A DNA stretch of 32,000 nucleotides from Candidatus Omnitrophota bacterium. Its GTDB lineage: Bacteria; Omnitrophota; Gorgyraeia; Duberdicusellales; 4484-171. The notes below the pieces were generated by a model. That model saw nothing but the letters and a program-made list of their open reading frames with translations, did no database searches and was not told the origin of the DNA. Positions 5,680 through 31,898 of this stretch are shown here, piece by piece; positions within the stretch are counted from its first letter, which is position 1; each line of letters starts with the position of its first letter. The DNA lies in contig JAIPHU010000011.1 in NCBI GenBank assembly GCA_021735045.1, positions 5,466 through 37,465 on the forward strand, in the 5' to 3' direction. The position numbers and the translations under genes were made by a program.

Positions 5680-5708
5680 TAATAGCTAAAATGTAAATAT
5701 AAAATCAA

Positions 5709-5727: not shown

Positions 5728-5782
5728 CTGTTTCAAACTATAACTAACTTCAAAAGTAAGAATAAACAAAAGGATTAAAAGT

Positions 5783-14777: not shown

Positions 14778-14837
14778 CCAAATATAGGACATTTGTTTTT
14801 GCTTATTTAGATACATCCTACAATGAGGAGGTTAGTA

Positions 14838-15460: not shown

Positions 15461-15488
15461 TTGACGCAAAAAAGAAAACTAGTAAAAT
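15461..15488 (+). promoter_or_regulatory. Candidate sigma70-type promoter of the PKS operon
   Basis: TTGACG (15461..15466), 16-nt spacer, TAAAAT (15483..15488), about 25 nt upstream of ATG 15514. Confidence 0.5.
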
Positions 15489-17031: not shown

Positions 17032-17052
17032 AGCGAGGAGGATAAATTAATT

Positions 17053-17787: not shown

Positions 17788-17796
17788 GGAGAGCAG

Positions 17797-19073: not shown

Positions 19074-19707
19074 AAATGAAGATTACTTATCAGCTAATTG
19101 TGCTGATATTAAAACTCCCTTTCCAAAACTAAAAGTAACTTGTACTGGGGTTTTTGGTGAGTGTTACCATGGTTATGAAGTGGGTGATGAACTAATTTTA
19201 GGAGATTTTACCCATCCTCCTAAGCATTTTTGCCTTGGGTTGGTTCATTCACTTTTTCCACCTGCCTACGCTTTAAGTTTTGGGGCTAGGTTTCCTTTTA
19301 TGGAGAATCAAAAATCGTTAAAAGTTACTTGTCCTGATGGCGGAAAAGCTGAATTTTTGGTTGAGCTGTTAGATAAAAAAGATAAAGTTCAATTTATTCC
19401 CCAAGACCCTAACCATAAAGGGCCTAATCCGAAAAAAATGGAAGTAGAAGTAGTTAAGGCAAAAGGAAAATGTGCCTATAAATATAAAGTTGGTGACAAA
19501 TGGGACATAGAAGGGCTTAAATGTATCCCCGGGTTTTGTGGAGCAGCTTGGCATACACTTTTTCCGGCGGTTTTTGCCTTAAACTTTGGAGCAAAATTTC
19601 ATTTTATGCAAGACCCTAACTCTATAGATACAGTTACTTGCCCTGATGGCGGCAACATTGTATTTAAGGTAAGAAGAAAAGAAAAAGACGCGAAAGAACG
19701 CGAATAA
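19063..19707 (+). CDS. Tandem-duplicated TIGR04076-family protein (function unknown)
   Basis: Two internal copies of the pattern C..Y.VGD.......P..FC......LFP...AL.FGA.F.FM......V.CPDGG...F.V (residues about 25-105 and 130-210). The last 7 codons (KDAKERE) lie in repeat B1. Confidence 0.6.
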   Translation: MKNKNEDYLSANCADIKTPFPKLKVTCTGVFGECYHGYEVGDELILGDFTHPPKHFCLGLVHSLFPPAYALSFGARFPFMENQKSLKVTCPDGGKAEFLVELLDKKDKVQFIPQDPNHKGPNPKKMEVEVVKAKGKCAYKYKVGDKWDIEGLKCIPGFCGAAWHTLFPAVFALNFGAKFHFMQDPNSIDTVTCPDGGNIVFKVRRKEKDAKERE

Positions 19708-19773
19708 AAAAGATGCGAAAGAGCGCGAATACAATTAGTGTTTATTAGTTAAAAATTAGCGTTTATTCGCGTT
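19684..19773. repeat. Family B intercistronic palindromic element, copy B1
   Basis: Starts with the 22-mer AAAGACGCGAAAGAACGCGAAT (19684..19705). AACGCGAATAAA (19697..19708) is perfectly complementary to TTTATTCGCGTT (19762..19773). The right arm holds tandem AATTAG(T/C)GTTTATT units. Confidence 0.85.
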
Positions 19774-19789
19774 ATAAAGGAAGGTAGAA

Positions 19790-21037
19790 ATGAAAAGAGT
19801 AGTTATAACAGGTGTTGGTGTAATATCAGCTGCAGGCGAAGAAAAGAATGAATTTTATAATAATCTAATTGAAGGTAAGCCGTGCATAGAAAAGGTAGAA
19901 AATTTTGACGTCAGTTTATTTAATTCAAAAGTCGCTTCTCAAGATCTAGATTTTGATCCTAAAAACTTTGGCATAGAAGATGCTTATCGTATGGATCGTT
20001 ATGTTCAGTTTGGCCTTGCTTCTGCAAAACAGGCGGTCAAAGATGCAAAACTAGATTTCTCAGATCTAGATTTAAGAAAATCAGGAGTTATCTTGGCAAA
20101 CGCTATTTGTGGAACCCGGTTTATGGAAGAAGAGTTTCTTCTGGTAACCGATTGGGGCAAAAATCCAATTGATCCCAGAAAGGGAAGGCCTTATCTTTAT
20201 GATGCTGCGATGTTTAATACGCCAAGTGCTGAAATTTCTGCTTTTTTTGGCACCCAGGGGATAAATACAACAATTTCTACTGGTTGTACCGCCGGTACTG
20301 ATTCTTTAGGCTTTGCTTATGAATTAATTAAAGATGGCAGGCAGGATTTAGTTATATCCGGAGCCAGTGAGGCCCCGATTACTCCGGTTACCTTCGGTGC
20401 CTTTGATGTAGTTAATGTTTTAGCTAAAGAGAATGATCAGCCTCATAGATCAAGCCGTCCCTTTGACAATAAACGTAATGGTTTTGTTATTTCTGAAGGA
20501 GCCGGAATCTTAATCATGGAAGAACTCGAGCATGCTAAAAAAAGAGGAGCTCATATCTACGCAGAAGTTAAAGGTTTTGGTACTACTTGTAATGCTTATC
20601 ATATGACTGATCTACCCCCAGATGGGCGCCCGATGGCACTTTCTATGGAACAGGCTTTGTCTGAGGCAGGTATTGATAAAAAAGAAGTAGGTTATATTAA
20701 TGCCCATGGGTCTTCGACTCGCCAAAATGACATTTTTGAAACTGATGCTTACAAAAAAGTTTTTGATAAACTTGCTTATGATATTCCGATCAGCTCAATT
20801 AAATCTATGGTTGGCCATCCTTTGGCAGCTGCAAATGCGGTTGAAAGTGTTTTGTGCTGTATGGTTTTTGAAAAAGGTTACCTTCCTCCTACAATTAATC
20901 AAGAAGAAAAAGACCCAAAGTGTGATCTAAACTATATTCCTAATAAAAAAATGAAACTAATGCCAGAATACATATTAAAGACAAGTAGTGGATTCTCAGG
21001 TATTCATTCAGCTATTGTGTTTAAAAAATGGAAATAG
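19790..21037 (+). CDS. Type II polyketide synthase ketosynthase alpha subunit
   Basis: Cys166 in TISTGCTAGTDS (codon 20285..20287). Catalytic His residues lie in NAYHMTD and INAHGSSTRQND. SIKSMVGH is present. The TRQND motif resembles what I recall for act-type KS-alpha rather than FabF (HGTSTPxGD). Confidence 0.88.
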   Translation: MKRVVITGVGVISAAGEEKNEFYNNLIEGKPCIEKVENFDVSLFNSKVASQDLDFDPKNFGIEDAYRMDRYVQFGLASAKQAVKDAKLDFSDLDLRKSGVILANAICGTRFMEEEFLLVTDWGKNPIDPRKGRPYLYDAAMFNTPSAEISAFFGTQGINTTISTGCTAGTDSLGFAYELIKDGRQDLVISGASEAPITPVTFGAFDVVNVLAKENDQPHRSSRPFDNKRNGFVISEGAGILIMEELEHAKKRGAHIYAEVKGFGTTCNAYHMTDLPPDGRPMALSMEQALSEAGIDKKEVGYINAHGSSTRQNDIFETDAYKKVFDKLAYDIPISSIKSMVGHPLAAANAVESVLCCMVFEKGYLPPTINQEEKDPKCDLNYIPNKKMKLMPEYILKTSSGFSGIHSAIVFKKWK

Positions 21038-21040
21038 ATA

Positions 21041-21126
21041 AAAGACGCGAAAGAACGCGAATATGATACAAATGAACGCGAACATAATTAGTGTTTTTTC
21101 GTTAAAAATTAGCGTTTATTCGCGTT
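21041..21126. repeat. Family B element, copy B2
   Basis: The identical 22-mer lies at 21041..21062. The right arm AATTAGTGTTTTTTCGTTAAAAATTAGCGTTTATTCGCGTT lies at 21086..21126. Confidence 0.85.
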
Positions 21127-21146
21127 ATAAATAAGGAGTTTTATAA

Positions 21147-22385
21147 ATGAAAGAGAAAGTTGCCATAACAGGTTTAGGGGTTGTTTCTCCTTGTGGCCTA
21201 AAGAAAGAAACTTTTTGGGCTAATTTAAAAAAAGAAGAATCATTTATAGAAGAAATCAAAAGGTTTGATTCAAAAAATTATCCTTCACATATTGCTGGTC
21301 AGGTGAGTCAACTTGATTATTATACCCATCTTTCTAAAAGGTTAACAAAAAAAATTGATATTTTTTCCCATATGGCACTTGTCTCTTCAGAAGAGGCGAT
21401 AGTAGATTCAAAAATGAACCTAGATGATATCGACAAAGAAAGAGTTGGAGTATTTATGGGCAATGCCTTAGGCGGATGGTTGTTTGCTGAAACTGAATTA
21501 AGGGATATGTATATTGAAGGCAGAGACGGTATCTCTCCTTATATGGCATCAGCTTGGTTTCCGGCTGCACCTCAAGGCCAGATTACAATTTACTATGGAT
21601 TTAAAGGATATAGTAAAACCACAGTTTCTGATAAGGCATCATCTGCTTTGGCTTTATGGTATGGGGCAAAAACAATTAAAGAAAAAAAGAATGACTATGT
21701 ATTAGCCGGAGGAATGGAGGCACCGATTACCCCCTATGCCTTGTTATCTGCTAATTGCCGGGGTGATTTGTCAAAAAATAATAGCCGTCCCCAAGAAGCT
21801 TATAAGCCTTATGATTTGTATCGAGACGGGCTGGTATTAGCAGAAGGTTCGGGTACAGTTGTCTTAGAAAGTCAAAATCAAGCAAGAAAAAGAAAAGCTC
21901 CGATTTATGGTTATATAGAAGGTATCGGTTTTTCTTCGGATGGGTATCATTATGCAAGGTACCGGCCTACCCCAGAAAATCTAGAGTATGCTATAAAAGA
22001 ATGCTTAAAAGATGCTGGTTGGCAAAAAGAGGATGTTGATTATATCTGCTTAGATGCAGAGTCTACTGAAATGGGAGATTACCTTGAAACCCAAGCTTTA
22101 AAGAATGTATTTGGAGAAAAAATTAAAAACATAGCTTTAAGTGCGCCTAAAAGCATGTATGGAAATCTATTGGGAGCTCAAACCGCATTAGACTTAATTA
22201 CTACTTTATTTTCGATGCAAAACTGTATTGTGCTTCCTACTATAAACTATTCGATGCAAGACCCATACTGTGACCTAGACTATACACCTAATAAGTCAGT
22301 GGAAAAAGAGATAGATAAGGCACTGATTATTTCCAGAGGCAGGGGAGGAATAAATATAGTATTAGCAATAGAAAAAGCGGAGTGA
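21147..22385 (+). CDS. Type II PKS ketosynthase beta subunit / chain-length-factor-like, lacking the catalytic Cys
   Basis: Paralogous to the upstream KS (MEAPITP, LVLAEGSG, PKSMYGN). The Cys position aligns with K163 in TVSDKASS (codon 21633..21635). The second His is replaced (ICLDAESTE versus INAHGSST). Confidence 0.85.
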   Translation: MKEKVAITGLGVVSPCGLKKETFWANLKKEESFIEEIKRFDSKNYPSHIAGQVSQLDYYTHLSKRLTKKIDIFSHMALVSSEEAIVDSKMNLDDIDKERVGVFMGNALGGWLFAETELRDMYIEGRDGISPYMASAWFPAAPQGQITIYYGFKGYSKTTVSDKASSALALWYGAKTIKEKKNDYVLAGGMEAPITPYALLSANCRGDLSKNNSRPQEAYKPYDLYRDGLVLAEGSGTVVLESQNQARKRKAPIYGYIEGIGFSSDGYHYARYRPTPENLEYAIKECLKDAGWQKEDVDYICLDAESTEMGDYLETQALKNVFGEKIKNIALSAPKSMYGNLLGAQTALDLITTLFSMQNCIVLPTINYSMQDPYCDLDYTPNKSVEKEIDKALIISRGRGGINIVLAIEKAE

Positions 22386-22480
22386 GCAAAGCGAACGGAG
22401 TTCTGAGCGATCAAGCGGTGAGCGCAGTCCTGAGCTTGTCGAAGGACGAAGTCGAACCACGCAGGGAGTCGAAGGAGATA
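22383..22480. repeat. GC-rich non-palindromic word-repeat island between KS-beta and ACP
   Basis: About 56% G+C by hand count over 22381..22480, within AT-rich surroundings. TGAGC occurs at 22383, 22404, 22419 and 22431. GTCGAA occurs at 22438, 22451 and 22468 (GTCGAAGGA twice). Confidence 0.6.
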
Positions 22481-22504
22481 AAAAATAAATTATAAGGAGG
22501 CAAA

Positions 22505-22744
22505 ATGGATTTAAAAGAAGAAGTAATAAAAGTAATTGCAGAAACCCTAGAAGTAGGCAAAGAAGAAGTTGTTGATGGAAAGAATTTATATGAATCAATT
22601 GGTGTTGATTCAACAGAAATGGTAGAAGTTTGTGTGGCTTTAGGAAAACATTTCGACACAAAAATCCAAGCCAGTGAAGTTAACAAAGATTCAACTCCCG
22701 AGGATATAGTAAGAATAGTTAAACAAAAAAAAGAAAATAATTGA
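22505..22744 (+). CDS. Acyl carrier protein
   Basis: 79 aa, acidic, with the phosphopantetheine serine motif GVDSTEMVE. AAGGAGG RBS. Confidence 0.88.
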   Translation: MDLKEEVIKVIAETLEVGKEEVVDGKNLYESIGVDSTEMVEVCVALGKHFDTKIQASEVNKDSTPEDIVRIVKQKKENN

Positions 22745-22749
22745 TAACT

Positions 22750-23556
22750 ATGAATTTAATAGATTTAAGTTTACCAATCGACGATCAAGCCTTCGAGGTT
22801 CATCCTTTAAGGATAGAACGCACTTCACATAAAGAAGGTATAGCAAAGATAAATAAGGTAATAATGTCTCGAACTCCTGAAGGCAAAAAAAATTATCAAG
22901 CTGGTGAAAGGATAATAAAAAAAGAACAATTGCCAGGAGGAGAATTTTTGTCACTGGAGATGGTTTATTCGTCAGTCCATAGCGGAACTCATATGGATTA
23001 TTCTTTTCATTATGGCAGCAGCTCCGAAGGCAGGCCTTCTAAAACTGCTGATGAAATTCCTTTAGAGTTATGTTACAAAGACGGGGTAAAATTAGACTTA
23101 ACTCATAAGAAAAAAGAAGAAGTAATTAGCGCCGAGGATATAAAGAAAGGTTTAGAAAAAATAAATTACACTTTAAAGCCCTTAGACATAGTTTTGCTTT
23201 ATACCGGATCTGACAAACTATTTGGCAAACCGGAATATTTTTCTGATTATCCAGGCCTGGATATATCAGCAATAGATTATCTACTTGATTGCGGTATAAA
23301 AGTATTTGGAGTTGATACTATGGGAATTGATAGGCCCTATAAATTTATGATCAAAGATTTTTTAGAAAAAGGGGATCCTAAATTTTTGTGGCCGGCTCAT
23401 TTTCATGGAAGAACCAGAGAATTTATTCATATTGAAAGGCTTGCTAATTTAGAAAATTTACCTGATTATGGATTTAAACTTATTTGTTTTCCAGTTAGAA
23501 TCAGAAAAACTGGTGCTGCTTGGTCAAGGGCCGTTGGAGTAATTGGTGACAAGTAA
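22750..23556 (+). CDS. Cyclase family protein (PF04199 / kynurenine-formamidase-like fold)
   Basis: HSGTHMDYSFH metal-binding motif and a later GVDTMGID segment. I start it at ATG 22750. The TTG at 22741 overlaps the ACP stop. Confidence 0.78.
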   Translation: MNLIDLSLPIDDQAFEVHPLRIERTSHKEGIAKINKVIMSRTPEGKKNYQAGERIIKKEQLPGGEFLSLEMVYSSVHSGTHMDYSFHYGSSSEGRPSKTADEIPLELCYKDGVKLDLTHKKKEEVISAEDIKKGLEKINYTLKPLDIVLLYTGSDKLFGKPEYFSDYPGLDISAIDYLLDCGIKVFGVDTMGIDRPYKFMIKDFLEKGDPKFLWPAHFHGRTREFIHIERLANLENLPDYGFKLICFPVRIRKTGAAWSRAVGVIGDK

Positions 23557-23582
23557 TTAATTAAACAAAAAGGAGGTTTACT

Positions 23583-24014
23583 ATGGCACATACTGTAAAT
23601 TCAATTGTAATTGATGCACCTTACGATAAGGTTTTTGAAATCAGTAATGATATTTCTCGTTGGAAGGATTTGTTTGACGAATATACCGAATCTGAAGTTT
23701 TAGAAAAAGAAGCAAATAAGATTATTTTTCAGCTTACTCATCAAAATGGCAATAGTTGGAAGTCATACCGGCTTTTGTTTAAAGAAAATAAATTTGCTTA
23801 TGCAGAAAAGCTAGATCCAAAGTTTCCTTTTGAATATATGAAGATAATCTGGCTTTACCGCCAACTTCCAAACGGGGTTGAGATGACATGGATTCAAGAT
23901 TTTACTATGGATAAAAATGCTAAGTTTGATGATCCAAAAGCTGAAGAGATTATAAATCAACACTCGCAGAAGAACTTAAAGAATTTTAAACAACAAATAG
24001 AAAATGAAAAATAA
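23583..24014 (+). CDS. SRPBCC-fold polyketide aromatase/cyclase (TcmN/WhiE-VI-like)
   Basis: 143 aa. I.APYDKVFEISNDISRWKDLF ... W.SYRLLF ... PFEYMKIIW ... GVEMTWIQDFTMD matches the ARO/CYC pattern as I recall it. AAGGAGG RBS. Confidence 0.72.
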   Translation: MAHTVNSIVIDAPYDKVFEISNDISRWKDLFDEYTESEVLEKEANKIIFQLTHQNGNSWKSYRLLFKENKFAYAEKLDPKFPFEYMKIIWLYRQLPNGVEMTWIQDFTMDKNAKFDDPKAEEIINQHSQKNLKNFKQQIENEK

Positions 24015-24017
24015 AAA

Positions 24018-25169
24018 ATGTTAAAAACACACAGACGCACTTTTTTCTTTTTAGCTAGCTTGGCTTTTATCCTTTCTTTTAGTGTACAAGCTACAGCAGC
24101 GCTTCTGCCTACTTTAGCAGAATATTTCAATCAAAGTCCGGTTGCAACAGGTAAGTTAATTTGGATTTATATGCTTCCCTACGGACTATGTGCTTTAATT
24201 TGGAGTCCGTTAAGCAGGCAGTTTTCGAATAAAAGGATTCTGCTTTCTTGTCTGGCGCTTTTTTCTCTGTCTGCTTTGGCAGTGACTTTTTCTTTTAATC
24301 TATTAGCTGCTTTTTTAGGCCGGTTGGGTATGGGTATATTTGGCTCGGCACTGGTACCTTTAAGTTTAATTACGATTGGTAAAGAGTGTAATAGTAAAGA
24401 GCGTCCTAAACATGTTGGTTTATTTTTTTCAGTTGGTTTTAGTTCAGGGCTCATAGGAGTTTTTTTAAGTGGGATTTTACCTTGGAGGTTTATCTACGGA
24501 ATTCCTGCCTGTCTAGGGATAGTAGCTTTATTTTTTGGCATAAGGTATCTAGATAGCTATGATTATCGGGGTAAGTTTAAAATTAGCTACCTGGCTACGT
24601 TTAAAGACAAAAGTGCCTTAAAACTATTTTCTTTTATCTTTGTTTTAAGTTTTTTCTACCATAGTATTCATCAATGGTTAGGGGTCTACTTAGCTCAAGA
24701 ATATTCTTTTAGTCAATTTTTAGTAAGTTTAACTTTAACTATTTCAGCAATAGCTGCAATTTTTTCTGAAAGTATTGGCGGTTTTTTATCAGCTCGGTTT
24801 GGTTCCTCTAATATTGCTTCATTAGGGCTTTTGAGTATGGTTTTATTTTTATTTTTTACTTTAATTGTCGGATTGCCTCAGGCAATATTTTTTCTTATTA
24901 TTTTTTGGGGTATGGGTTGGGCTTTTAACCATGTCGGTTTATCGTCATATTTAACTGGGCTTCCCGATAAATATTTGCGTGATGCATCCAGTCTAAATAG
25001 CTCTTTAAGGTTTATCTCTGGAGGCTTAGGGACTTATTTTGGCGGAAAGATTATCTCTAAGATAGGGTTTTCGATCCATTTTATAACTGTAGGAGTTTTA
25101 CTTTTGGTAGTAGCAGTTTTAATTAAAAAAACTTTAATAGTTAATAACGCGAATGAACGCGAATTATAG
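24018..25169 (+). CDS. MFS transporter
   Basis: About 12 hydrophobic segments. A GRLGMGIFG-type loop motif follows TM2-3. The last codons (NANEREL) lie in repeat B3. Confidence 0.8.
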   Translation: MLKTHRRTFFFLASLAFILSFSVQATAALLPTLAEYFNQSPVATGKLIWIYMLPYGLCALIWSPLSRQFSNKRILLSCLALFSLSALAVTFSFNLLAAFLGRLGMGIFGSALVPLSLITIGKECNSKERPKHVGLFFSVGFSSGLIGVFLSGILPWRFIYGIPACLGIVALFFGIRYLDSYDYRGKFKISYLATFKDKSALKLFSFIFVLSFFYHSIHQWLGVYLAQEYSFSQFLVSLTLTISAIAAIFSESIGGFLSARFGSSNIASLGLLSMVLFLFFTLIVGLPQAIFFLIIFWGMGWAFNHVGLSSYLTGLPDKYLRDASSLNSSLRFISGGLGTYFGGKIISKIGFSIHFITVGVLLLVVAVLIKKTLIVNNANEREL

Positions 25170-25231
25170 ACGCGAATGAACGCTAATATTATTAGCGTTT
25201 ATTTGTTATAAATTAGTGTTTTTTCGCGTTT
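25146..25231. repeat. Family B element, copy B3 (variant)
   Basis: AACGCGAATGAACGCGAAT...GACGCGAATGAACGCTAAT | ATTAGCGTTTATTTG...AATTAGTGTTTTTTCGCGTT. The central palindrome is AACGCTAATATTATTAGCGTT. Confidence 0.8.
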
Positions 25232-25247
25232 AAAAGAGGAGGTTAAG

Positions 25248-26030
25248 ATGGGTAATTTAGAAGATAAAGTTGCAATTGTAACTGGTGCTACAGGAGGTAT
25301 TGGTAAAGATATAGTTAAAGGACTAGTTGATAAAAAAATAAAACTTATATTGGCTGGGCGCAATCAAGAAAAATTAAAATCCTTAGAAGAAGAATTTTCG
25401 AAAATTTCTGAAATTATTACAGTTAGCTGTGATGTTACCAAAAGAAAGGATTTAGAAAATTTAATTAATAAAGCCAAAGAAAAATTTGGCAAGATTGATT
25501 TTTTAATTAATGGGGCTGGAGTATCAAGCCAGCATCCTTTTTGGAATCAGCCTATAGAAGATATAGAAAAAATTATCTGGACCAACTATTATAGTTATGT
25601 AATGTTATCAAGAATGGTTGTGCCAATTATGAAAGAAAATAATTTTGGCCATATTGTAAATATTACATCTGGATCTGTGATGGTAGATCCGCCGCCAAGA
25701 AATTTTATTGTTTACACTTCTTTAAAGGTGGCATTACGCAGCTTTGCTAAGGGTCTTTTTTGGGAGATGCGTGATTTTGGGATAAAGGTTACATCCATTT
25801 TTCCTGGGGTAACCCGGACTCCTTTAACCGGTAAGTTAAAGAATATAGCTGAAAATAGGCTTATAGAACCAAAAGCAGTAGCTGATACAGTAGTGTTTGC
25901 CTTGGCTCAGCCATTAAATGTTTGCCCCATTGAACTTGCTGTAATAAATCAACAAACACCTTGGACAAAACCGGTTATTCCGTTTAAACAAGATCACCCG
26001 AAAGACGCGAAAGAACGCGAATGTAATTAG
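25248..26030 (+). CDS. Short-chain dehydrogenase/reductase (probable polyketide ketoreductase)
   Basis: TGATGGIG cofactor motif, NGAG, and the catalytic YTSLK (YxxxK). The C-terminal PKDAKERECN is encoded by repeat B4. Confidence 0.85.
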   Translation: MGNLEDKVAIVTGATGGIGKDIVKGLVDKKIKLILAGRNQEKLKSLEEEFSKISEIITVSCDVTKRKDLENLINKAKEKFGKIDFLINGAGVSSQHPFWNQPIEDIEKIIWTNYYSYVMLSRMVVPIMKENNFGHIVNITSGSVMVDPPPRNFIVYTSLKVALRSFAKGLFWEMRDFGIKVTSIFPGVTRTPLTGKLKNIAENRLIEPKAVADTVVFALAQPLNVCPIELAVINQQTPWTKPVIPFKQDHPKDAKERECN

Positions 26031-26087
26031 TGTTTTTTCGTTAAAAATTAGCGTTTATTTGTTATAAATTAGCGTTTATTCGCGTTT
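26001..26087. repeat. Family B element, copy B4
   Basis: The identical 22-mer lies at 26001..26022. AACGCGAAT (26014..26022) is complementary to ATTCGCGTT (26078..26086). There are three right-arm AATTAG(T/C)GTTT units. Confidence 0.85.
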
Positions 26088-26105
26088 AAACAAAGGAGGT
26101 AGAAA

Positions 26106-27566
26106 ATGAAAGTATTATTTGTAACCCCTAAAACTGGAGCTTGGGCAACTCATGGAAAGCATCTAGGCCCTAACCAACTTTATGCCCAGTGGGCAGCATT
26201 TATCAGAGAGAAAGGCTTTAAAGATTTAGAAGTACTTGATTGCCGGGCCCACCAGATAGAGATGGATGAGATGCTTGAGGTGATAAAAGAAAAAAATCCA
26301 GAAGTAGTAGTAATTGGGGATATGCTTCATTCCTATGGAGGATTTGGAATTATTCACTATTTTTTAAAAACAGCCGAAGGGATAAAAAAGATTTTACCTA
26401 ATACTAAAATAATCTTTGGAGGGCTTTGGTTTTCATCGATGCCTAAATATTCTTTGGAAAAATATCCTTTTATTGACTATGTAGTTATGGCTGAAGAAGA
26501 AGCGTTTTTTGATTTGCTATCTTCTCTAGAAAAAAACGAAGATGTAACTGAGATAGCTGGGGTTGCTTCTCGAAAAGACACAAAAGTGATACTTGGCCCA
26601 CACAGAATGCTTCAGAAAGATTTAGATTCTTTGCCGTTGCCAGCTTATGATTTATTTCCCATGGAAAAGTATGTCGGCCATACTTATTGGAAGCCATTTG
26701 TTGAAATGGTAACATCGCGTGGTTGTCCTTCTGCTTGTACTTTTTGTTATGAGTGGGATCAATATGATCCAAGGCATCCGGAAGATTTCTTAAGTTGGAG
26801 GGCTAAATCACCCGAGAGAGTGATTGAAGAGCTAGAACTTCTTCATCATCAATATGGAGTAAAAGTTGTTGTAATCCAAGATGATAACTTTAACGTTAGT
26901 CCAAAAAGAGTCGAAAAGTTTTGCAAAATGAAACTCGAGAAAAAAAATCCCATAAAGTGGGTTTCACTAGGCAGAGCGGTTGATTGGACTAACTGTGAAC
27001 AGATTTTACCACTGATGAAAGAATCAGGGTTATTTATGGGTGTCTTTGGAATAGAGGTAACTACCAAAGAAGAACTAAAACAAATAGCCAAAGGTATTAC
27101 TATCGAACAAATAAAGAAAACAATTGATATTCTACGAAGCCAGGATATAGCTATTGTTGCTGATATTATGATGGGATTTGATGAAGATACAGAAGCTAAA
27201 ATTAAAAGTAGGTATGAATTTACTGACGAGGTAGATCCGGATATTCTTTGGATAGGATATGTAACACCGGCTCCTAATTCACCTATCTGGAGGCAAAGAG
27301 TTAAGCGGGGCGAGCTAAATCCTGACGATATTGATTTCCTAAAATGGGATTTTCTTCATCCGGTGATGCCAACTAAACATTTATCTGTAGAAGATTACGG
27401 AAGATTGGGTTCATGGTGTATGCGTGAATTTTATTCAAAGCCAGGTAGGATTCAAAGAATAATGACCAGTAACTTTGACCAACTTGCTAAACTTTGTTTC
27501 CAAGATGTTATGAAGGGTGTAACAAAATGGGAAGAAGGGGCAGTAAAAGGCGAAAAACACGTATGA
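26106..27566 (+). CDS. B12-binding-domain radical SAM enzyme (class B)
   Basis: N-terminal Rossmann-like B12-binding region (KVLFVTP...VVVIGD). CxxxCxxC cluster motif in SRGCPSACTFCYEW. AAGGAGG RBS. Confidence 0.85.
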   Translation: MKVLFVTPKTGAWATHGKHLGPNQLYAQWAAFIREKGFKDLEVLDCRAHQIEMDEMLEVIKEKNPEVVVIGDMLHSYGGFGIIHYFLKTAEGIKKILPNTKIIFGGLWFSSMPKYSLEKYPFIDYVVMAEEEAFFDLLSSLEKNEDVTEIAGVASRKDTKVILGPHRMLQKDLDSLPLPAYDLFPMEKYVGHTYWKPFVEMVTSRGCPSACTFCYEWDQYDPRHPEDFLSWRAKSPERVIEELELLHHQYGVKVVVIQDDNFNVSPKRVEKFCKMKLEKKNPIKWVSLGRAVDWTNCEQILPLMKESGLFMGVFGIEVTTKEELKQIAKGITIEQIKKTIDILRSQDIAIVADIMMGFDEDTEAKIKSRYEFTDEVDPDILWIGYVTPAPNSPIWRQRVKRGELNPDDIDFLKWDFLHPVMPTKHLSVEDYGRLGSWCMREFYSKPGRIQRIMTSNFDQLAKLCFQDVMKGVTKWEEGAVKGEKHV

Positions 27567-28447
27567 TAAACGATGCACACACTCACTTTATTCCCAAAGA
27601 GATATCTGACCAGACTTCTTTTTATAAAGGAGTCTGGGCCGATAAAGAAAAGCTATTTTCTTATCTTGAGCAAAACAAAATTGAAAAAGCATTACTTACC
27701 TATCCCTCTACAGACGCTCATCTTCAACTAGGGCAAAAGAAGGTCTGTCAAATTTATAATAAAGCTCAAGAGGAGTTGATTCAGGAAAATCCGAAAATAG
27801 TTGCTGCCGGCCTTCTTAATTTAGAGCCGATAGAACAAATACCTGAACAAATCAAAAGTTTATCCGAAAGAGGCTTTAAGGCCTTAAACCTTTCTTCAAG
27901 TTATCAAGGTAGATTTTTAGTAAAAGAGTTGGTGCCGTTGTTTAGAGCAGCTCAAGATTATCAACTGCCAATATTTGTTCATCCTCAGACAATCAATCCG
28001 ATTGGCTTTGAGCGGGTAAAAGACCCTCTTCTTATGCCGGTCCTAGAGTATGGTTTTGATTCTTCTATGTTTATGGGCTTGCTTATGACCGAGGAGATAT
28101 TGCAGGAGTTTAAAGTTGATTTTATATTTTCTTCCTTAGGCGGAATAATTCCCTTTTTAAAAAATAGGTTAGATCGTGTTTATAAGATGTTGAAGCAAAG
28201 GCAGATAGTTAAAGACCTAGGAGATTCACCTTCAAACATTTTAAAAAAAGTTTACGTTGATACATCAGGGGCAACTTTAGAAAATATAAAAATGGCTCTT
28301 GATTTTTTTGGCCCGGAGCATATCCTTTGGGGATCAGACTATCCGGTTAATCCATCAGTAACTAAAAATTTAGAAAAGTTAGATAAGTTAGGAGAGTTAA
28401 AAAATAAAATTGTTTATCAAAATTTTAAACAGTTGTTTAAACTATGA
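27563..28447 (+). CDS. Amidohydrolase_2 (ACMSD / aromatic-acid decarboxylase-type) metal-dependent hydrolase
   Basis: N-terminal DAHTHF metal motif, VHP in mid-protein, C-terminal LWGSDYP. I start it at ATG 27563, which forms an ATGA overlap with the radical SAM stop. The 27494 extension is basic junk in the overlapping frame. Confidence 0.75.
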   Translation: MINDAHTHFIPKEISDQTSFYKGVWADKEKLFSYLEQNKIEKALLTYPSTDAHLQLGQKKVCQIYNKAQEELIQENPKIVAAGLLNLEPIEQIPEQIKSLSERGFKALNLSSSYQGRFLVKELVPLFRAAQDYQLPIFVHPQTINPIGFERVKDPLLMPVLEYGFDSSMFMGLLMTEEILQEFKVDFIFSSLGGIIPFLKNRLDRVYKMLKQRQIVKDLGDSPSNILKKVYVDTSGATLENIKMALDFFGPEHILWGSDYPVNPSVTKNLEKLDKLGELKNKIVYQNFKQLFKL

Positions 28448-29388
28448 GTAAGTTAAAGTTTTCACCTTTATTTTGGCCGATTAAGTTAAAAAAAGATTAT
28501 ATTTTAGTTTTAGACGAAACTAAACTGCCTAAAAAAACTAGCTATCTTAAAGTTAAAAATTATCGGCAGGCAGTTTCACTAATAAAAAATATGAAAACCA
28601 GGGCTATCGGTCAAGTTTTGTTGGTATTATATACTTTTTTGATTGTTTATCGCAGGTATAAAGGTAAGAAGGTATTAAATTCTAAAATAACTCAAGTAGC
28701 TAAGGGTTTTAATTCAGCAAGGCCTACTTTATCTTTTAAATATCTAACGGATATGGTCCTAGCTCAGCAAGCAGCTGGCCTTTCTTTAGATAAAAAGATT
28801 TTAGAATTTTTAGAGACCTTAAAAGAAAAACGCATCTATCAGGCTAAGGAAACTAGCAAATTGATTAAAGCCGGAGATACTATCTTAACCCATTGTAATT
28901 TAAGCGGGCTTATCCCCTTAGTCGGTTCTTTTTGCCGCAGCCAAGATAAAACTATTAGTTTTTTTGTAACAGAAACCAGGCCTTATCTGCAGGGGGTTCG
29001 TTTGACTGCTTGGGAGTTATCTCGGGAAGGTTTTGATACAACAGTTATCTGCGATAATATGGTAGCCCAAGTTATGGCAGAAGGCAAGATCAATAAAATA
29101 GTTGTTGGTGCCGATAACTTAGCTAAAAATGGGGATATTGCCAATAAGATCGGAACTTATCAGATAGCTTTGTTGGCTAGGTACTTCAAGCTTCCTTTTT
29201 ATGTGGTTTGCCCGCCTGAATCTAGGGCTAAAGAAGGTAAAGATATTAAAATTGAGGTCAGGCCGGATAAAGAGTTGTTTAAAATTGGAGCTGAAACTGT
29301 TGCTCCTTTGGGAATAAAAGGATATTATCCGGCTTTTGATATTACGCCAAATAGTTTAATTACCAAACATATCTATATGGGGGTCTAA
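28444..29388 (+). CDS. eIF-2B alpha/beta/delta family sugar-phosphate isomerase (MtnA / 5-deoxyribose-1-phosphate isomerase-like)
   Basis: LVLDETKLP, THCNLSG (Cys), TETRPYLQGVRLTAWEL, VVGADNLAKNGDIANKIGTY (Asp) and PFYVVCP. These correspond to MtnA core motifs, including the catalytic Cys and Asp contexts as I recall them. Confidence 0.78.
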   Translation: MSKLKFSPLFWPIKLKKDYILVLDETKLPKKTSYLKVKNYRQAVSLIKNMKTRAIGQVLLVLYTFLIVYRRYKGKKVLNSKITQVAKGFNSARPTLSFKYLTDMVLAQQAAGLSLDKKILEFLETLKEKRIYQAKETSKLIKAGDTILTHCNLSGLIPLVGSFCRSQDKTISFFVTETRPYLQGVRLTAWELSREGFDTTVICDNMVAQVMAEGKINKIVVGADNLAKNGDIANKIGTYQIALLARYFKLPFYVVCPPESRAKEGKDIKIEVRPDKELFKIGAETVAPLGIKGYYPAFDITPNSLITKHIYMGV

Positions 29389-29389
29389 G

Positions 29390-30418
29390 ATGTTTAATCA
29401 AGAGAAAAAATCAAGAAAAAAAATTATTAATATCGGCAAACGCCTTTATCAGCGGAATCTTGCGGTTGCCAGTTCAGGAAATATTAGTCTGAAACTACCT
29501 GATCAAAAGGTTCTTATTACCGGAGCTCAAACTCAATTAGCTGATCTGCAACCTTCTGATATTGTTAAAGTAGATATTACAAGCAATAAAACAGAAGGTC
29601 AAACTGCTCCTTCGTCAGAGCTTCCTTTACATAGTCTAGTCTATAAAAACTTTGAATCAAAAGTAGTTTTACACTGCCACCCGCCTTTGATTAACGGCTA
29701 CTTTGCAGTTAACCAAAAGCTGAAGGCGTTAAGTTTTGAAACTAGATTTTATTTAGGTGACGTTCCGGTGGTAAAACAAGATACTCCTACAGTTACAAAT
29801 CCAGATGAAGTTATAGAGGCCTTAAAGTTGTCCAATATTGTGGTCTTAAAAAATCATGGGGTGATTGCCATAGCTGATGATTTTTTAAAAGCGCTAGCTT
29901 TGGTAGAAACATTAGAGGAAGCAGTTAAAACTGCTGTTGTGGCTAAAATTTTTAAAAATGAAAAAGACCAAGATCTTAATCCAGAAACTAAAAGCAAACA
30001 AAAAAAGCAAAACACCAAAGAATACCCTATGTTTTCTAAAGGCCATATTGAAGCAATTGTGGATTTAGTCAACCAAGATGATTTTATTGCAGAAAAAGGC
30101 AAAGAACTTGACTTAACGGTTAAGTTAGCGATTAAACTTTCTGGAGAAGATAAAGCTTATAAATTTATTTGGGACCAAGGCAAAATTAAAGAACTTCAGT
30201 TTGATGCAGAAGCCCCTTTTGTAATCACTGCCTCAGCTGATATTTGGCGAGAGGTTTTTTTAGGCCAGCTTGATCCATTTGTAGCAGTTACCCAAGGCAA
30301 GATGAGCTTAGATGGTCAACTAGGACAATTGTCTAGGTGGTATGTTCCCTTTTCTAGATTATTTGAAATATTTAAACAGGTAAAATTTAAGGAGCCGGAA
30401 CAAGATGCAAGAATATAG
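29390..30418 (+). CDS. Class II aldolase/adducin-domain protein fused to a C-terminal SCP2 sterol-carrier-like domain
   Basis: Aldolase part: SSGNIS, PSSELPLH, VLHCHPP and LKNHGVIAI (Glu plus 3 His zinc ligand pattern). After a K/Q-rich linker comes an SCP2-like region ...VFLGQLDPFVAVTQGKMSLDGQLGQL. Confidence 0.75.
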   Translation: MFNQEKKSRKKIINIGKRLYQRNLAVASSGNISLKLPDQKVLITGAQTQLADLQPSDIVKVDITSNKTEGQTAPSSELPLHSLVYKNFESKVVLHCHPPLINGYFAVNQKLKALSFETRFYLGDVPVVKQDTPTVTNPDEVIEALKLSNIVVLKNHGVIAIADDFLKALALVETLEEAVKTAVVAKIFKNEKDQDLNPETKSKQKKQNTKEYPMFSKGHIEAIVDLVNQDDFIAEKGKELDLTVKLAIKLSGEDKAYKFIWDQGKIKELQFDAEAPFVITASADIWREVFLGQLDPFVAVTQGKMSLDGQLGQLSRWYVPFSRLFEIFKQVKFKEPEQDARI

Positions 30419-31898
30419 TTCTTTTATAAACGGTGAGTTTAAAAAAGGCAAAGAAAAAAAAGAAATAATTAATCCTTCCAACGGAGAGGTTATAACTTCT
30501 GTTTTTCTAGCTTCCCCAGAGGATATAGATTATGCAGTTAAGTCAGCCCGTTTAGCTTTTGAGAAAGGGCCTTGGCCTGAGTTTAGCCTAGCTCAGAGAA
30601 AAGATATACTGATAAAGTTGTCTAAAGCTATACTTGCTAAAGCAAAAGAGTTGGCTGAGTTAGAAAGCCTTAATGCTGGTAAACCGATAAAGGAAACAAC
30701 CTTTATGGATATTCCATCTAGTGCAGCCAGTTTTAGGTATTTTGCCAGCAACTTAGAAAATTTTTTCCAAACAGAAGAGATAAACATTAATAGCCAGATT
30801 GCTCAAGCTAAAGGAGAGTTAATTCGGGAACCACGTGGTGTGGTGGCTTTAATTTCTCCTTGGAACTATCCGCTTTTAATTGCTTCCTGGAAGTTAGCTC
30901 AAAGCCTAGCCGCTGGTAATACTGTTATTTTGAAACCGTCTACTTTAACTCCTTTAACTGTCTTAGAGCTAGCAAAAATAGCTAGTAAAGTTGGCCTGCC
31001 CAAAGGCGTATTAAATGTATTGGTTGCTAAAGGAGAAGAAACCGGCAAGGTTTTATGCACTCATAAGAATGTCGATATGATCTCTTTTACCGGTTCTAAT
31101 CCGATTGGCAAAAAGATTATTGAATCTTCAGCAAAAAATATCAAAAAAACTATCATGGAACTAGGTGGAAAATCAGCCAGCCTTGTTTTAGAAGATGCCG
31201 ATATAGATTCGGCAGTAAATGGTTGCCTTTGTTCGGTATTTTTAAACCAGGGCCAGATGTGTACAGCAACTTCTCGGATTATCATTGATGAAAAGATCTA
31301 TCGCCAGTTTGTAGAAAAATTAAAAGAACGTACCGAAAAAATTAAATTAGGAGCTCCTTTGGATTTCCAAACTCAGATCGGCCCGCTTATATCTAAAGCT
31401 CAAAGAGATAAAGTTGTTTCTTTTATGAATAAAGCCAAACAGGAGGGATTAAATATAATCAGCGGAGGAAAGATTCCTGAGGATAAAGATCTAGAAGGAG
31501 GCTTTTTCTTTGAACCTACATTGGTTGAAGCAGTATCACCTGATTCAACTCTTTGGCAAGAAGAGATTTTTGGGCCAGTTGCAACTTTAACTAAAGCCGC
31601 ATCGACAGAAGAAGCAATCTCTTTTGCTAATAGTTCTGAATTTGGCCTTGCAGCTTCTGTTTGGAGCAAAGACAAAGAAAAAGCTGCAAGAATAGCTAAA
31701 AAGATTTCGGCTGGAGCTATTTGGATAAATACCTATGGCATGTTTTTTGATCAACTTCCTTTTGGAGGATTTAAAAAAAGCGGTTTTGGCAAAGAACTAG
31801 GCAAAGCTGGCTTTTTTGAATATACCCGCCTCAAAAATATCATCACCGACCAAAGCAAAGAAGCAAAGCCATTAGTTAGTTATTGGTATGGCTTCTAG
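30405..31898 (+). CDS. NAD(P)-dependent aldehyde dehydrogenase
   Basis: SPWNYPL, KPS..TPL, FTGS, MELGGKSA (Glu), NQGQMCTA (Cys) and EEIFGPV motifs. Overlaps the upstream stop by 14 nt. Confidence 0.92.
   Translation: MQEYSSFINGEFKKGKEKKEIINPSNGEVITSVFLASPEDIDYAVKSARLAFEKGPWPEFSLAQRKDILIKLSKAILAKAKELAELESLNAGKPIKETTFMDIPSSAASFRYFASNLENFFQTEEININSQIAQAKGELIREPRGVVALISPWNYPLLIASWKLAQSLAAGNTVILKPSTLTPLTVLELAKIASKVGLPKGVLNVLVAKGEETGKVLCTHKNVDMISFTGSNPIGKKIIESSAKNIKKTIMELGGKSASLVLEDADIDSAVNGCLCSVFLNQGQMCTATSRIIIDEKIYRQFVEKLKERTEKIKLGAPLDFQTQIGPLISKAQRDKVVSFMNKAKQEGLNIISGGKIPEDKDLEGGFFFEPTLVEAVSPDSTLWQEEIFGPVATLTKAASTEEAISFANSSEFGLAASVWSKDKEKAARIAKKISAGAIWINTYGMFFDQLPFGGFKKSGFGKELGKAGFFEYTRLKNIITDQSKEAKPLVSYWYGF

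Follow-up and report, generated by a model that had tools for sequence, protein, structure and literature searches.

The DNA analysed here, called the window throughout, is a stretch of 32,000 nucleotides from a Candidatus Omnitrophota bacterium (NCBI GenBank assembly GCA_021735045.1, contig JAIPHU010000011.1, positions 5,466 to 37,465 of the forward strand), and it carries a type II polyketide synthase (PKS) gene cluster that includes genes for a set of putative nucleoside-cleaving enzymes, among them a class II aldolase fused to an SCP2 lipid-binding domain. The window has 31 open reading frames (ORFs) of at least 100 amino acids, all on the + strand, and a GC content of about 34%. The cluster spans from the gene for an AMP-ligase (starting at 15514) to the gene for an aldehyde dehydrogenase (ALDH, ending at 31898) and possibly starts already at a nitroreductase-family gene (14823), and the rest of the window consists of housekeeping genes. 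In an initial annotation made from the sequence alone, a radical S-adenosylmethionine (rSAM) gene, an Amidohydro_2 gene and genes for an MtnA-like isomerase, a class II aldolase and an ALDH had been located one after another, with genes for a PNP_UDP_1 phosphorylase and an AMP-ligase further upstream, and Pfam searches found all of these families at the same places on the + strand. That annotation had also described the genes as translationally coupled and the phosphorylase gene as part of the same operon. Both claims agree with the junctions: the rSAM and Amidohydro_2 genes overlap by 4 nt (ATGA), as do the Amidohydro_2 and isomerase genes, the isomerase and aldolase genes are separated by a spacer of 1 nt, the aldolase and ALDH genes overlap by 14 nt with an AAGGAG site, and all intergenic gaps across 15514–31898 are 119 nt or shorter.

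Enzymes of the putative nucleoside-cleaving module

The phosphorylase (17053–17787; PF01048, 119.1 bits) is a hexameric DeoD-type purine nucleoside phosphorylase (PNP). It scores 108 bits against the DeoD model (cutoff 232) and matches no MtnP model among the NCBIfam profiles, and its best matches in the PDB are DeoD (4D8V, 91 bits) and then the hexameric methylthioadenosine (MTA) phosphorylase of Sulfolobus (1JDS, 85 bits). The phosphate site and Asp204 are retained in 62–63 of 63 sequences, Glu181 is replaced by Val in all 63, and His4 is replaced by Met in 54 and by Ser in 8 of them. From the residue roles of E. coli DeoD, we take Glu181 to be the ribose-binding residue and His4 to be the contact of the 5'-OH. 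There is no sugar kinase accompanying the PNP as an entry step. The AMP-ligase gene (15514–17031; Pfam 283.9 and 69.6 bits) lies 21 nt before the PNP gene in the window, and its product belongs to the FadD/4CL/luciferase type. The best NCBIfam match is PRK06187, a long-chain fatty-acid-CoA ligase model (408 bits, cutoff 476), the MenE models give 241–286 bits, and the best PDB matches are 4CL, luciferase, feruloyl-CoA synthetase and FadD13. Its P-loop Lys and A10 Lys are invariant in 52 orthologues, and in all 52 of them Gly306 occupies the position of the Trp gate, the residue that closes the acetate pocket in acetyl-CoA synthetases.

The isomerase and the aldolase were placed in their families by curated-model scores and structure matches. 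The isomerase (28444–29388; PF01008, 182.4 bits) is an IF-2B/MtnA-like sugar-1-phosphate aldose-ketose isomerase of the MtnA family, which exceeds the cutoff of TIGR00524, a subfamily model related to MtnA (191 bits, cutoff 185.85), and stays below both cutoffs of the MtnA equivalogs (220 bits with a cutoff of 279, and 232 bits with a cutoff of 271). Its PDB matches are MtnA structures 1T9K (167 bits) and 2YRF/2YVK (152 bits). The Cys of the THCN motif (Cys151) and the Asp of the GADN motif (Asp224), both recognised already in the initial annotation, are invariant in 77 of 77 orthologues. That the protein is MtnA-like and not an eIF2B paralogue was likewise borne out, as it reaches 220–232 bits against the MtnA equivalogs versus 53–64 bits against the eIF2B models (cutoffs 249–339); the model for ribose-1,5-bisphosphate isomerase gives 108 bits (cutoff 314). 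An eIF2B-like pseudo-enzyme and a ribose-1,5-bisphosphate isomerase are thus ruled out by the scores, the MtnA relatives in the PDB and the catalytic Cys/Asp pair.

The aldolase gene (29390–30418) encodes a metal-dependent class II aldolase domain of the FucA/DrdA type at its N-terminus (residues 1–190, 29390–29959; PF00596, 122.1 bits). The full Glu/His3 zinc pattern (E77/H95/H97/H156), reported earlier for the window, is invariant in 81 of 81 sequences, and so are N31 and S76 of the phosphate site for dihydroxyacetone phosphate (DHAP), with S75 kept in 79 of 81. An AlphaFold model (pLDDT 80) was matched by Foldseek to FucA (2FK5/4C24) and DrdA (6BTD/6BTG) with a TM score of about 0.8 and an rmsd of 2.0 Å; DrdA is the 5-deoxyribulose-1-phosphate aldolase of B. 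thuringiensis, on which the model superposes. The protein is far under all NCBIfam equivalog cutoffs, those for MtnB (TIGR03328, 61 bits, cutoff 137; NF006672, 62.9 bits, cutoff 226) and araD (TIGR00760, 32.9 bits, cutoff 389) included, and AraD structures rank under every aldolase. Moreover, the FucA-type PSSE Glu, which MtnB does not have, is kept in 81 of 81 sequences. An MtnB dehydratase and an AraD epimerase are therefore ruled out by the scores, the Glu/His3 and phosphate sites and the fold, in agreement with the original assignment as an aldolase.

What had been overlooked is that the aldolase domain is joined by a disordered linker (residues 190–208) to an SCP2 domain (residues about 209–335, 30014–30418; PF02036, 22.2 bits, cutoff 21.3). 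Modelled alone with AlphaFold 2, this domain gave a pLDDT of 88 and a pTM of 0.81, and its best Foldseek match is the SCP2 protein of T. thermophilus (2CX7; TM 0.79/0.82, rmsd 2.0 Å). The other matches comprise UbiJ-SCP2 of ubiquinone biosynthesis (6H6O), eukaryotic sterol carrier proteins and alkyl-binding domains of alkylsulfatases, and at E ≤ 0.001 all 38 of 38 matches are SCP2-fold proteins or SCP2-containing enzymes of the alkylsulfatase type. The SCP2 domain stands in place of the C-terminal tail of FucA, which covers the aldehyde subsite, and structures of FucA tail and Tyr113/Tyr209 mutants are among the structure matches of the aldolase. The gene that follows (30405–31898; PF00171, 553.5 bits) encodes a non-acylating NAD(P)+-dependent ALDH, in which the hydrolytic residues Cys286/Glu252/Asn154 are invariant in 72 of 72 sequences.

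The PKS that shares the cluster has an active ketosynthase (KS), KSα, assigned by Pfam (19790–21037), with the best PDB matches AntD (6SMO, 366 bits), actinorhodin KSα (1TQY_A, 345 bits) and FabF (323 bits) and with Cys166/His306/His343 invariant in 24 of 24 sequences. Its partner KSβ (21147–22385) is catalytically dead as judged from an alignment to FabF (3O04): the active-site Cys is Lys in the window and, in the 35 sequences including the window, Arg in 22 and Lys in 13, and both catalytic His are replaced (by Asp and Asn) in 35 of 35. The match of KSβ to FabF (279 bits) is better than that to the actinorhodin chain-length factor (184 bits), and KSβ does not carry the chain-length-factor Gln at the KS Cys position, a residue that stands for decarboxylative priming. 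The acyl carrier protein (ACP; 22505–22744; PF00550, 36.3 bits) has a GVDS motif with Ser36 invariant in 57 of 57 sequences and is the sole ACP in the cluster. Pfam scans of the window ORFs found no KSIII and no acyltransferase in the cluster. Because KSβ has Arg or Lys in place of Gln and has lost both His in 35 of 35 sequences, decarboxylative self-priming by KSβ appears unlikely, and with a dead KSβ, a single ACP and neither KSIII nor acyltransferase, the PKS would be in need of a primer from outside.

Conservation and gene order of the cluster

Among species-representative genomes, 174 encode the aldolase-SCP2 fusion, and the locus counts given below, obtained by tblastn, cover the best 80 loci, all from Omnitrophota metagenome-assembled genomes (MAGs), some of which are auto-labelled Planctomycetia or Planctomycetales. 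The named close homologues of the aldolase are all from Candidatus Omnitrophota, and its sequence is matched exactly on contig JAIPHE010000009.1 of another MAG (GCA_021735365.1). PKS genes are present in all 49 loci that have at least 7 kb of upstream sequence. The ALDH gene follows the aldolase gene in 74 of 80 loci, the PNP gene immediately precedes the isomerase gene in 51 of 66, the AMP-ligase gene lies downstream of the ALDH gene in 37 of 48 (with a gap of 101 nt or less in 21 of these), and rlmN lies downstream in 38 of 48. This arrangement, recurring across the best 80 of the 174 genomes, is far beyond chance.

Two main gene orders were distinguished. In the window (type A) the order is AMP-ligase, PNP, an 89-amino-acid conserved protein (unk89), PanE, a tandem TIGR04076-domain protein (T4076), KSα, KSβ, ACP, cyclases, a major facilitator superfamily (MFS) transporter, a short-chain dehydrogenase/reductase (SDR), rSAM, Amidohydro_2, isomerase, aldolase, ALDH and rlmN. 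In the majority (type B) it is unk89, PanE, T4076, KSα, KSβ, rSAM, ACP, cyclases, sometimes the MFS transporter, SDR, sometimes a CBM_11-like protein, an unknown protein of 130 amino acids, Amidohydro_2, PNP, isomerase, aldolase, ALDH, none to four inserted genes, AMP-ligase and rlmN. The gene set is constant across the architectures and the order is variable, and the ligase always accompanies some gene of the module. The window is thus a rearranged version, and the module genes are contiguous in most related genomes. An Amidohydro_2 gene precedes the isomerase gene in 15 of 66 loci. Adjacency to the rSAM gene, by which the initial annotation had delimited the module, does not hold as a general rule: it is limited to the minority type A (15 of 66 loci), in type B the rSAM gene is placed between those for KSβ and ACP, and no cobalamin-binding rSAM gene is near the deep-branching modules described below.

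Several details of the type B loci were also noticed. The protein of about 130 amino acids, which has no family match, is encoded directly upstream of Amidohydro_2 in 9 of 9 type B loci examined (for example, L022 6405–7417), and the type B loci (L016–L085) often carry the CBM_11-like protein of about 203 amino acids (85 bits); the window has neither of these two extras. Insertions between the ALDH (or aldolase) gene and the ligase gene occur in L017 (12488–15783), L028, L034, L067 and L076. One inserted set encodes a PlsC-type acyltransferase, a formyltransferase/ACT protein, a DUF748 protein and an unknown protein of 217 amino acids, and the insert in L067 (11006–12841) and L076 encodes a DeoC/LacD-family aldolase and a zinc alcohol dehydrogenase. 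A third order is found in L100 (1–14353), which starts with the 3' end of the ALDH gene, followed by rSAM, unk89, an extra ORF of 155 amino acids, PanE, T4076, KSα, KSβ, a ThiF-like ORF of 224 amino acids, cyclases, MFS transporter, SDR and Amidohydro_2, and ends with a second, divergent cobalamin-binding rSAM paralogue (41% identical).

Several of the cluster enzymes are strongly conserved, with median identities (L007–L086) of 80% for KSα, 69% for the rSAM enzyme, 68% for the cyclase, 62% for the isomerase and 61% for the aldolase, compared with 46% for the flanking RlmN; the less conserved members are the ligase (46%), the PNP (44%) and Amidohydro_2 (41%). It is unusual for a secondary-metabolite cluster that several of its enzymes are more conserved than a housekeeping protein such as RlmN. 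The number of genomes (174), the recurrent position of rlmN and enzymes that outconserve housekeeping genes suggest that the product is an important metabolite in a phylum without cultured members; the cluster is a conserved trait of this uncultivated phylum and not a sporadic antibiotic cluster.

An exhaustive profile-free search revealed about 25 more clusters of full-length aldolase-SCP2 fusions with 29–41% identity, in which E77, H95, H97 and H156 and the DHAP phosphate-site residues G30, N31 and S33 are still invariant; the taxonomy of these distant lineages was inferred from synteny alone. The other proteins encoded there are orthologous to those of the window (PNP 43–46%, isomerase 36–47% and ligase 31–49% identical), and the V-D-M-V motif of the PNP is retained in all distant loci compared. 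In L102 the order is ligase, cobalamin-binding rSAM, PNP, isomerase, a small IF-2B ORF, aldolase-SCP2 and ALDH, with genes for an SRPBCC protein, a PanE-like protein and a KS further downstream, and in L106 it is SRPBCC, SDR, Amidohydro_2, PanE, T4076, isomerase, a small IF-2B ORF, aldolase-SCP2 and ALDH. These are two diverged versions of the module, each attached to PKS-type genes (KS, SRPBCC and PanE in L102, PKS accessory genes in L106). L103 has ligase, PNP, isomerase, a small IF-2B ORF, aldolase-SCP2, ALDH and rlmN, with molybdenum-cofactor genes upstream, and rlmN is also beside the module in L107. In L104 and L105 the genes for a MarR protein, a CCG/Fer4_8 protein, PNP, an isomerase of 506–510 amino acids, aldolase-SCP2 and ligase are found, the ALDH gene is absent, and in L105 a gene for an Sfp-type phosphopantetheinyl transferase (PPTase) comes directly after the ligase gene. 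The co-occurrence with KS genes expected from the initial annotation was therefore confirmed in the 49 close loci and fails, within the 16–20 kb of sequence covered, in L103, L104 and L105, three deep-branching loci from two lineages.

What stays invariant is thus a core of PNP, isomerase, aldolase-SCP2 and AMP-ligase, in most cases together with ALDH, whereas the PKS and the cobalamin-binding rSAM enzyme are frequent, non-obligatory partners. The AMP-ligase counts as a member of the module because its gene is found with those for PNP, isomerase and aldolase-SCP2 down to an aldolase identity of 35–41%. This functional unit differs from the grouping proposed earlier, in which Amidohydro_2 was listed among the coupled genes; Amidohydro_2 is missing from the stand-alone modules (L103, L104 and L105) and resembles aromatic-acid decarboxylases. 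The fusion of the aldolase to SCP2 is retained down to about 30% identity. The SCP2 domain has the same age as the module, and the SCP2-fused aldolase is an old enzyme family without prior study.

Some further features of the distant loci concern the same genes. An extra IF-2B-like ORF of 156–181 amino acids occupies the interval between isomerase and aldolase in L102 (9519–9989), L103 (9534–10007) and L106 (5819–6364), it is apparently fused to the isomerase in L104 (8472–9992) and L105 (8157–9689), giving the 506–510 amino acids, and the window lineage does not have it. L102 (13914–16219) carries genes for an aldehyde:ferredoxin oxidoreductase and a ferredoxin beside the module, L103 (1–6176) carries a molybdenum hydroxylase fragment and the molybdenum-cofactor biosynthesis genes, and in the ALDH-less loci L104 (6492–7712) and L105 (6168–7391) the CCG/Fer4_8 iron-sulfur protein gene lies directly before the PNP gene. 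T4076, whose conservation is unusually high, is 70% identical in L106, a locus in which the aldolase identity falls to 35%.

A possible route from a nucleoside to a polyketide starter

Based on family membership, invariant catalytic residues and colinearity, we tentatively propose, at a little short of an even chance, that the module runs a pathway of the DHAP-shunt type which continues as far as an activated acid, and that this acid serves as the primer of the PKS. In this pathway, the PNP would convert a 5'-substituted 5'-deoxy purine nucleoside and phosphate into the base and a sugar-1-phosphate, the isomerase would turn the latter into a ketose-1-phosphate, and the aldolase would cleave this into DHAP and an aldehyde X-CH2-CHO, which would consist of C4' and C5' of the ribose and the 5' substituent X. 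Then the ALDH would oxidise the aldehyde to X-CH2-COOH, the AMP-ligase would convert the acid into an acyl-adenylate to be passed to CoA or a carrier protein, and the activated acid would supply the starter acyl group of the type II PKS. The idea that ALDH and AMP-ligase make an activated acid had been raised as a speculation in the initial annotation and is now strongly supported, as both genes are in line with those for PNP, isomerase and aldolase in most genomes. Where the module is joined to a PKS, the supply of a starter acyl group would be its most likely role as far as the sequences indicate. A biosynthetic purpose is suggested because the pairing of a hydrolytic ALDH with an ATP-dependent ligase would be wasteful for the disposal of acetaldehyde and is normal for activation, and a link to a carrier protein is suggested because PKS genes are present in 49 of 49 loci, two diverged versions of the module lie by PKS-type genes, and a PPTase gene follows the ligase gene in L105.

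As for the 5' substituent, class B rSAM enzymes and RlmN both release 5'-deoxyadenosine, and we take X = H (5'-deoxyadenosine) as the default because the clustered cobalamin-binding rSAM enzyme, the adjacent RlmN and all other rSAM enzymes produce it; a second candidate at hand is MTA (X = CH3S). However, the SCP2 fusion is hard to reconcile with 5-deoxy- or methylthio-ribulose-1-phosphate as the sole substrate, and the predicted SCP2 domain, the type of the ligase and the hydrophobic 5'-pocket of the PNP hint at a lipophilic X.

A number of observations weigh against this proposal. The evidence is computational throughout, and the loading of the ACP by the ligase is a step that we infer. X = H would give acetate, an odd primer by this route; a lipophilic X would need a radical adenosylation of the HpnH/MqnE kind, and neither a nucleoside-making enzyme nor an rSAM enzyme of the HpnH/MqnE type was found for it. 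The sugar specificity of the PNP is uncertain given the change of Glu181 to Val and its being of the DeoD rather than the MtnP type, and the aldolase has Phe at the position of FucA Tyr113 in 80 of 81 sequences, with an invariant Glu next to it. The most conserved neighbour of the module is rlmN, a housekeeping rSAM gene (38 of 48 loci, L103 and L107), which fits a salvage function. In L103, L104 and L105 no PKS or cobalamin-binding rSAM gene occurs within 6–10 kb upstream and 3–10 kb downstream of the module, which rules out the PKS as an obligatory partner, and the ligase may just complete a salvage route to an acyl-CoA.

The module was compared with the closest known systems. The DHAP shunt and the disposal of 5-deoxyribose use MtnP or MtnN and MtnK, with MtnA and Ald2, or DrdK, DrdI and DrdA (PMC6079011, PMC12632272), and clusters of the phosphorylase type have been described (PMC6079011). 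The Omnitrophota module resembles them in its entry by phosphorolysis, in an isomerase of the MtnA family with the Cys/Asp pair and in a FucA-like aldolase giving DHAP and an aldehyde. It differs in that the phosphorylase is of the DeoD and not the MtnP type, with Glu181 changed to Val and His4 to Met or Ser, the isomerase does not reach the equivalog cutoffs for MtnA, the aldolase carries an SCP2 fusion and has Phe at FucA Tyr113, an AMP-ligase (always) and an ALDH (usually) are integrated, and a type II PKS is joined in most genomes. In the fluoroacetate/4-fluorothreonine pathway of Streptomyces cattleya and Nocardia brasiliensis, FlA, FlB, an isomerase for 5-fluoro-5-deoxyribose 1-phosphate, an aldolase and a fluoroacetaldehyde dehydrogenase act in turn (PMC3999930), so that 5'-fluoro-5'-deoxyadenosine is converted through fluoroacetaldehyde into fluoroacetate (PMC6079011, PMC3999930), an analogy drawn in the paper on the Drd enzymes itself (PMC6079011); the aldolase and ALDH genes of this pathway are not clustered with the remainder (PMC3999930). 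Common to both are the order of phosphorylase, isomerase, class II aldolase and ALDH leading to X-CH2-COOH (the four families being colinear in 51 of 66 Omnitrophota loci) and the setting in secondary metabolism, whereas the fluoroacetate pathway has no ligase, PKS or SCP2 domain and the Omnitrophota window has no SAM-dependent halogenase. FlB is of the MTAP type. A hidden fluorinase or chlorinase in the Omnitrophota cluster was ruled out, since no halogenase of the SAM_HAT/DUF62 family was found in any ORF of the window or among the called genes of the related loci. Given the shared four-enzyme chemistry of the fluoroacetate pathway, the statement in the initial annotation that such a route has no described precedent is too strong.

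Two other systems bear on the use of the acid. For salinosporamide A, Eustaquio et al. in 2009 reportedly described a chloroethylmalonyl-CoA pathway with the chlorinase SalL, the PNP SalT and downstream enzymes. There, a SAM-derived 5'-modified 5'-deoxyadenosine is likewise phosphorolysed and its ribose carbons end in a dedicated PKS building block, whereas the route is reported to start with a chlorinase, to use a phosphatase, a dehydrogenase and a dihydroxy-acid dehydratase instead of isomerase and aldolase, and to feed a C4 extender unit to a type I PKS. Type II PKSs primed by a ligase are reportedly represented by enterocin, with the benzoate:ACP ligase EncN, and by the anthraquinone cluster of Photorhabdus, with AntG. 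The Omnitrophota cluster is similar to these in its stand-alone AMP-ligase without KSIII or acyltransferase and in a KSα nearest to AntD and actinorhodin KSα, and it is different in that the acid apparently comes from a dedicated nucleoside-cleaving module and KSβ has Arg or Lys instead of Gln. Three core steps are known from the DHAP shunt and the Drd enzymes, to which the module would add two, and four, through ALDH, are known from fluoroacetate formation. Our literature search turned up neither a paper that connects a type II PKS with the chemistry of the DHAP shunt nor a description of the module, its SCP2 fusion or its link to a type II PKS, KS-CLF pairs of Omnitrophica being mentioned in a catalogue only (PMC10132072), so the linkage of module and PKS appears to be undescribed.

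The strongest alternative, which we consider rather unlikely, is plain salvage of by-products by a self-contained route of disposal and carbon recovery, in which 5'-deoxyadenosine and/or MTA would be converted into adenine, DHAP and acetate or methylthioacetate and then an acyl-CoA, the PKS being primed otherwise and a mere neighbour. The module beside rSAM genes (rlmN and the cobalamin-binding rSAM gene) would then shield these enzymes from product inhibition, and according to PMC6079011, 5'-deoxyadenosine does inhibit rSAM enzymes. This explanation is consistent with the stand-alone modules without nearby PKS or cobalamin-binding rSAM genes, with the adjacency of module and rlmN as the most conserved one, with the streamlined genomes of Omnitrophota (PMC10066038), and with the fact that clusters of phosphorylase, MtnA-like isomerase and FucA-like aldolase are established 5-deoxyribose/DHAP-shunt systems (PMC6079011). 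Against it, an SCP2 domain kept to about 30% identity would have no role for C2 or methylthio-C2 products, the ligase is of an aryl/fatty type with an open pocket and not of the acetate type, and the combination of ALDH and ATP-dependent ligase would cost ATP that an acylating dehydrogenase would not. Furthermore, salvage leaves aside the PPTase gene right after the ligase gene in L105, the tie of 49 of 49 close loci to a PKS whose KSβ presumably cannot self-prime, and the two diverged modules that each lie by PKS-type genes.

It is more doubtful, and in our view improbable, that the ribose of SAM serves as a two-carbon donor, an rSAM enzyme adenosylating a lipophilic acceptor (either a lipid with an olefinic bond or an intermediate of the polyketide) and the module trimming the adduct to -CH2-CHO, -CH2-COOH and an activated acyl group. 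This would give a function to the SCP2 domain, which has a fold like UbiJ, sterol carriers and the alkyl-binding domains of alkylsulfatases and replaces the FucA tail, and it would suit the replacement of His4 of the PNP (54 Met and 8 Ser among 63 sequences) and a ligase nearest to a long-chain fatty-acid-CoA model with 4CL and FadD13 as relatives in the PDB; in L102, the cobalamin-binding rSAM gene directly before the PNP gene is colinear with such a pathway. There are precedents in radical adenosylation followed by base removal, namely HpnH/HpnG, where adenosylhopane is formed and a PNP homologue removes the adenine to give ribosylhopane, and MqnE/MqnB with aminofutalosine (PMC13459092). In these systems, too, an enzyme of the PNP family acts on a nucleoside whose lipophilic 5' substituent is C-linked and releases its purine, and the ribose carbons are kept in a lipid or quinone product, whereas the ribose is kept whole or recut via MqnC/MqnD, with no isomerase and aldolase. 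However, the sole clustered rSAM enzyme is of the cobalamin class B, nearest to the C-methyltransferases TokK and CysS and to BchE, no HpnH or MqnE model was matched at E ≤ 1e-5, HpnG reaches 31 bits only (cutoff 187), MqnB gave no match, the stand-alone modules have no adjacent cobalamin-binding rSAM gene, and no acceptor-forming genes were identified. In addition, no class B rSAM enzyme is known to adenosylate.

A fuller form of the same idea, in which the module forms the final part of a previously unseen pathway that uses SAM as a two-carbon donor and primes the type II PKS toward an aromatic lipid or quinone-like metabolite, seems a shade less probable still. The 5'-deoxyadenosyl radical would join a lipophilic acceptor, PNP, isomerase and aldolase-SCP2 would strip off adenine and ribose C1'–C3' (as DHAP) to leave acceptor-CH2-CHO, this would be oxidised and adenylated to become the primer of the PKS, and Omnitrophota would inherit the making of this near-essential product vertically. 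The canonical ubiquinone pathway of Omnitrophota has been reported to be incomplete, and no source for its aromatic head group is known (PMC10066038), which is a lead for the product of the cluster and not evidence. Ordinary nucleoside catabolism, from adenosine or inosine through ribose-1-phosphate and ribulose-1-phosphate to DHAP and glycolaldehyde, then glycolate and an activated glycolyl unit, is very improbable, because a DeoD-type PNP, a weak likeness of the aldolase to a model for ribulose-1-phosphate aldolases of haloarchaea (64.8 bits, cutoff 300) and the oxidation of glycolaldehyde and lactaldehyde by ALDHs of this type are set against a PNP without the 5'-OH-contacting His and the ribose-binding Glu181, an isomerase that by its scores is of the MtnA type, whose substrates are 5-deoxy or 5-thio sugars, and an SCP2 domain and ligase type left unexplained. 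If the module does prime the PKS, as we tentatively propose, it would be the first case of DHAP-shunt/fluoroacetate-type chemistry making a polyketide starter, and the metabolism of nucleosides and SAM by-products would be tied directly to polyketide assembly.

Tailoring genes, flanks and minor features

The remaining genes of the PKS set are as follows. The unk89 gene (17797–18066) encodes a protein with PF11084 (DUF2621) at 26.8 bits (cutoff 27.7) and PF08369 (PCP_red) at 14.9 bits, and it lies upstream of PanE, T4076 and KSα in both architectures and belongs to the PKS set. It is weakly like PCP_red (protochlorophyllide reductase subunit B), and the rSAM enzyme of the cluster is likewise nearest to a chlorophyll-pathway family, BchE. 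Next come the gene for a PanE/ApbA-family NAD(P)H ketoreductase (18066–19073; PF02558 and PF08546; TIGR00745, 158 bits, cutoff 141), which is kept in the relatives as part of the PKS set, and that for T4076, a protein of unknown function (19063–19707; TIGR04076, 99.4 bits, two stretches), which is invariably directly upstream of KSα and 60–81% identical in metagenome loci. Downstream of the ACP gene are those for a PF04199 'cyclase' family protein (22750–23556; 99.3 bits), an SRPBCC polyketide cyclase/aromatase-like protein (23583–24014; PF03364 and PF10604), an MFS transporter (24018–25169; PF07690, 116 bits), which occurs in 36 of 80 loci, with several of these loci truncated, and an SDR ketoreductase (25248–26030; PF00106, 161 bits; KR domain, 52 bits).

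The cobalamin-binding class B rSAM enzyme (26106–27566; PF04055, 72.8 bits; PF02310, 41.8 bits) has BchE as its best NCBIfam match (206 bits, cutoff 481) and the methyltransferase TokK as its best PDB match (51 bits), with CysS also among them, and its CxxxCxxC motif (C207/C211/C214) is invariant in 54 of 54 sequences. The Amidohydro_2 protein (27563–28447; PF04909, 53.1 bits) is like aromatic-acid decarboxylases, its best PDB matches being the 5-carboxyvanillate decarboxylase LigW (52 bits), ACMSD and IDCase, and its metal ligands H6/H8/H140/D259 are retained in 67–68 of 68 sequences. The family given for it initially is right; the gene begins at ATG 27563, in accordance with the public gene call of 294 amino acids, and not at TTG 27494 of the mechanical ORF. 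A nucleoside deaminase or a part of the sugar module was ruled out for this protein by its decarboxylase relatives and its absence from the stand-alone modules. The rSAM and Amidohydro_2 enzymes thus belong with the PKS tailoring set, not with the sugar module.

The upstream flank of the cluster is formed by era (13793–14728), and between era and the cluster lies the nitroreductase-family gene (14823–15338), 175 nt upstream of the AMP-ligase gene; a nitroreductase homologue occupies the equivalent position in L091. Downstream of the window end are rlmN and a DedA/VTT gene. In the 175-nt gap, a promoter-like site on the + strand (TTGACG-16-TAAAAT, 15461–15488, 10/12 match), the best one in the scan, is a possible promoter of the cluster, and the promoter scan of the whole window gave no enrichment over shuffled sequences. 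Terminator-like sites in the window are not enriched either (13 found versus 14.0 expected), and no Rfam families or tRNAs were found there. The AT skew dips to -0.264 at 24001–25000 (elsewhere about +0.05), where the MFS transporter gene lies, and T-rich codons for the hydrophobic residues of the transporter are the probable cause. Upstream of era, two large overlapping genes (9468–13824) encode a TPR-DUF3857-transglutaminase-DUF3858 protein of 791 amino acids and a protein of 663 amino acids with an N-terminal PilZ as its sole recognisable domain. Further upstream, at 5197–6088, a bactofilin-HTH_17 fusion of 160 amino acids is followed by a separate HTH_17 protein of 101 amino acids.

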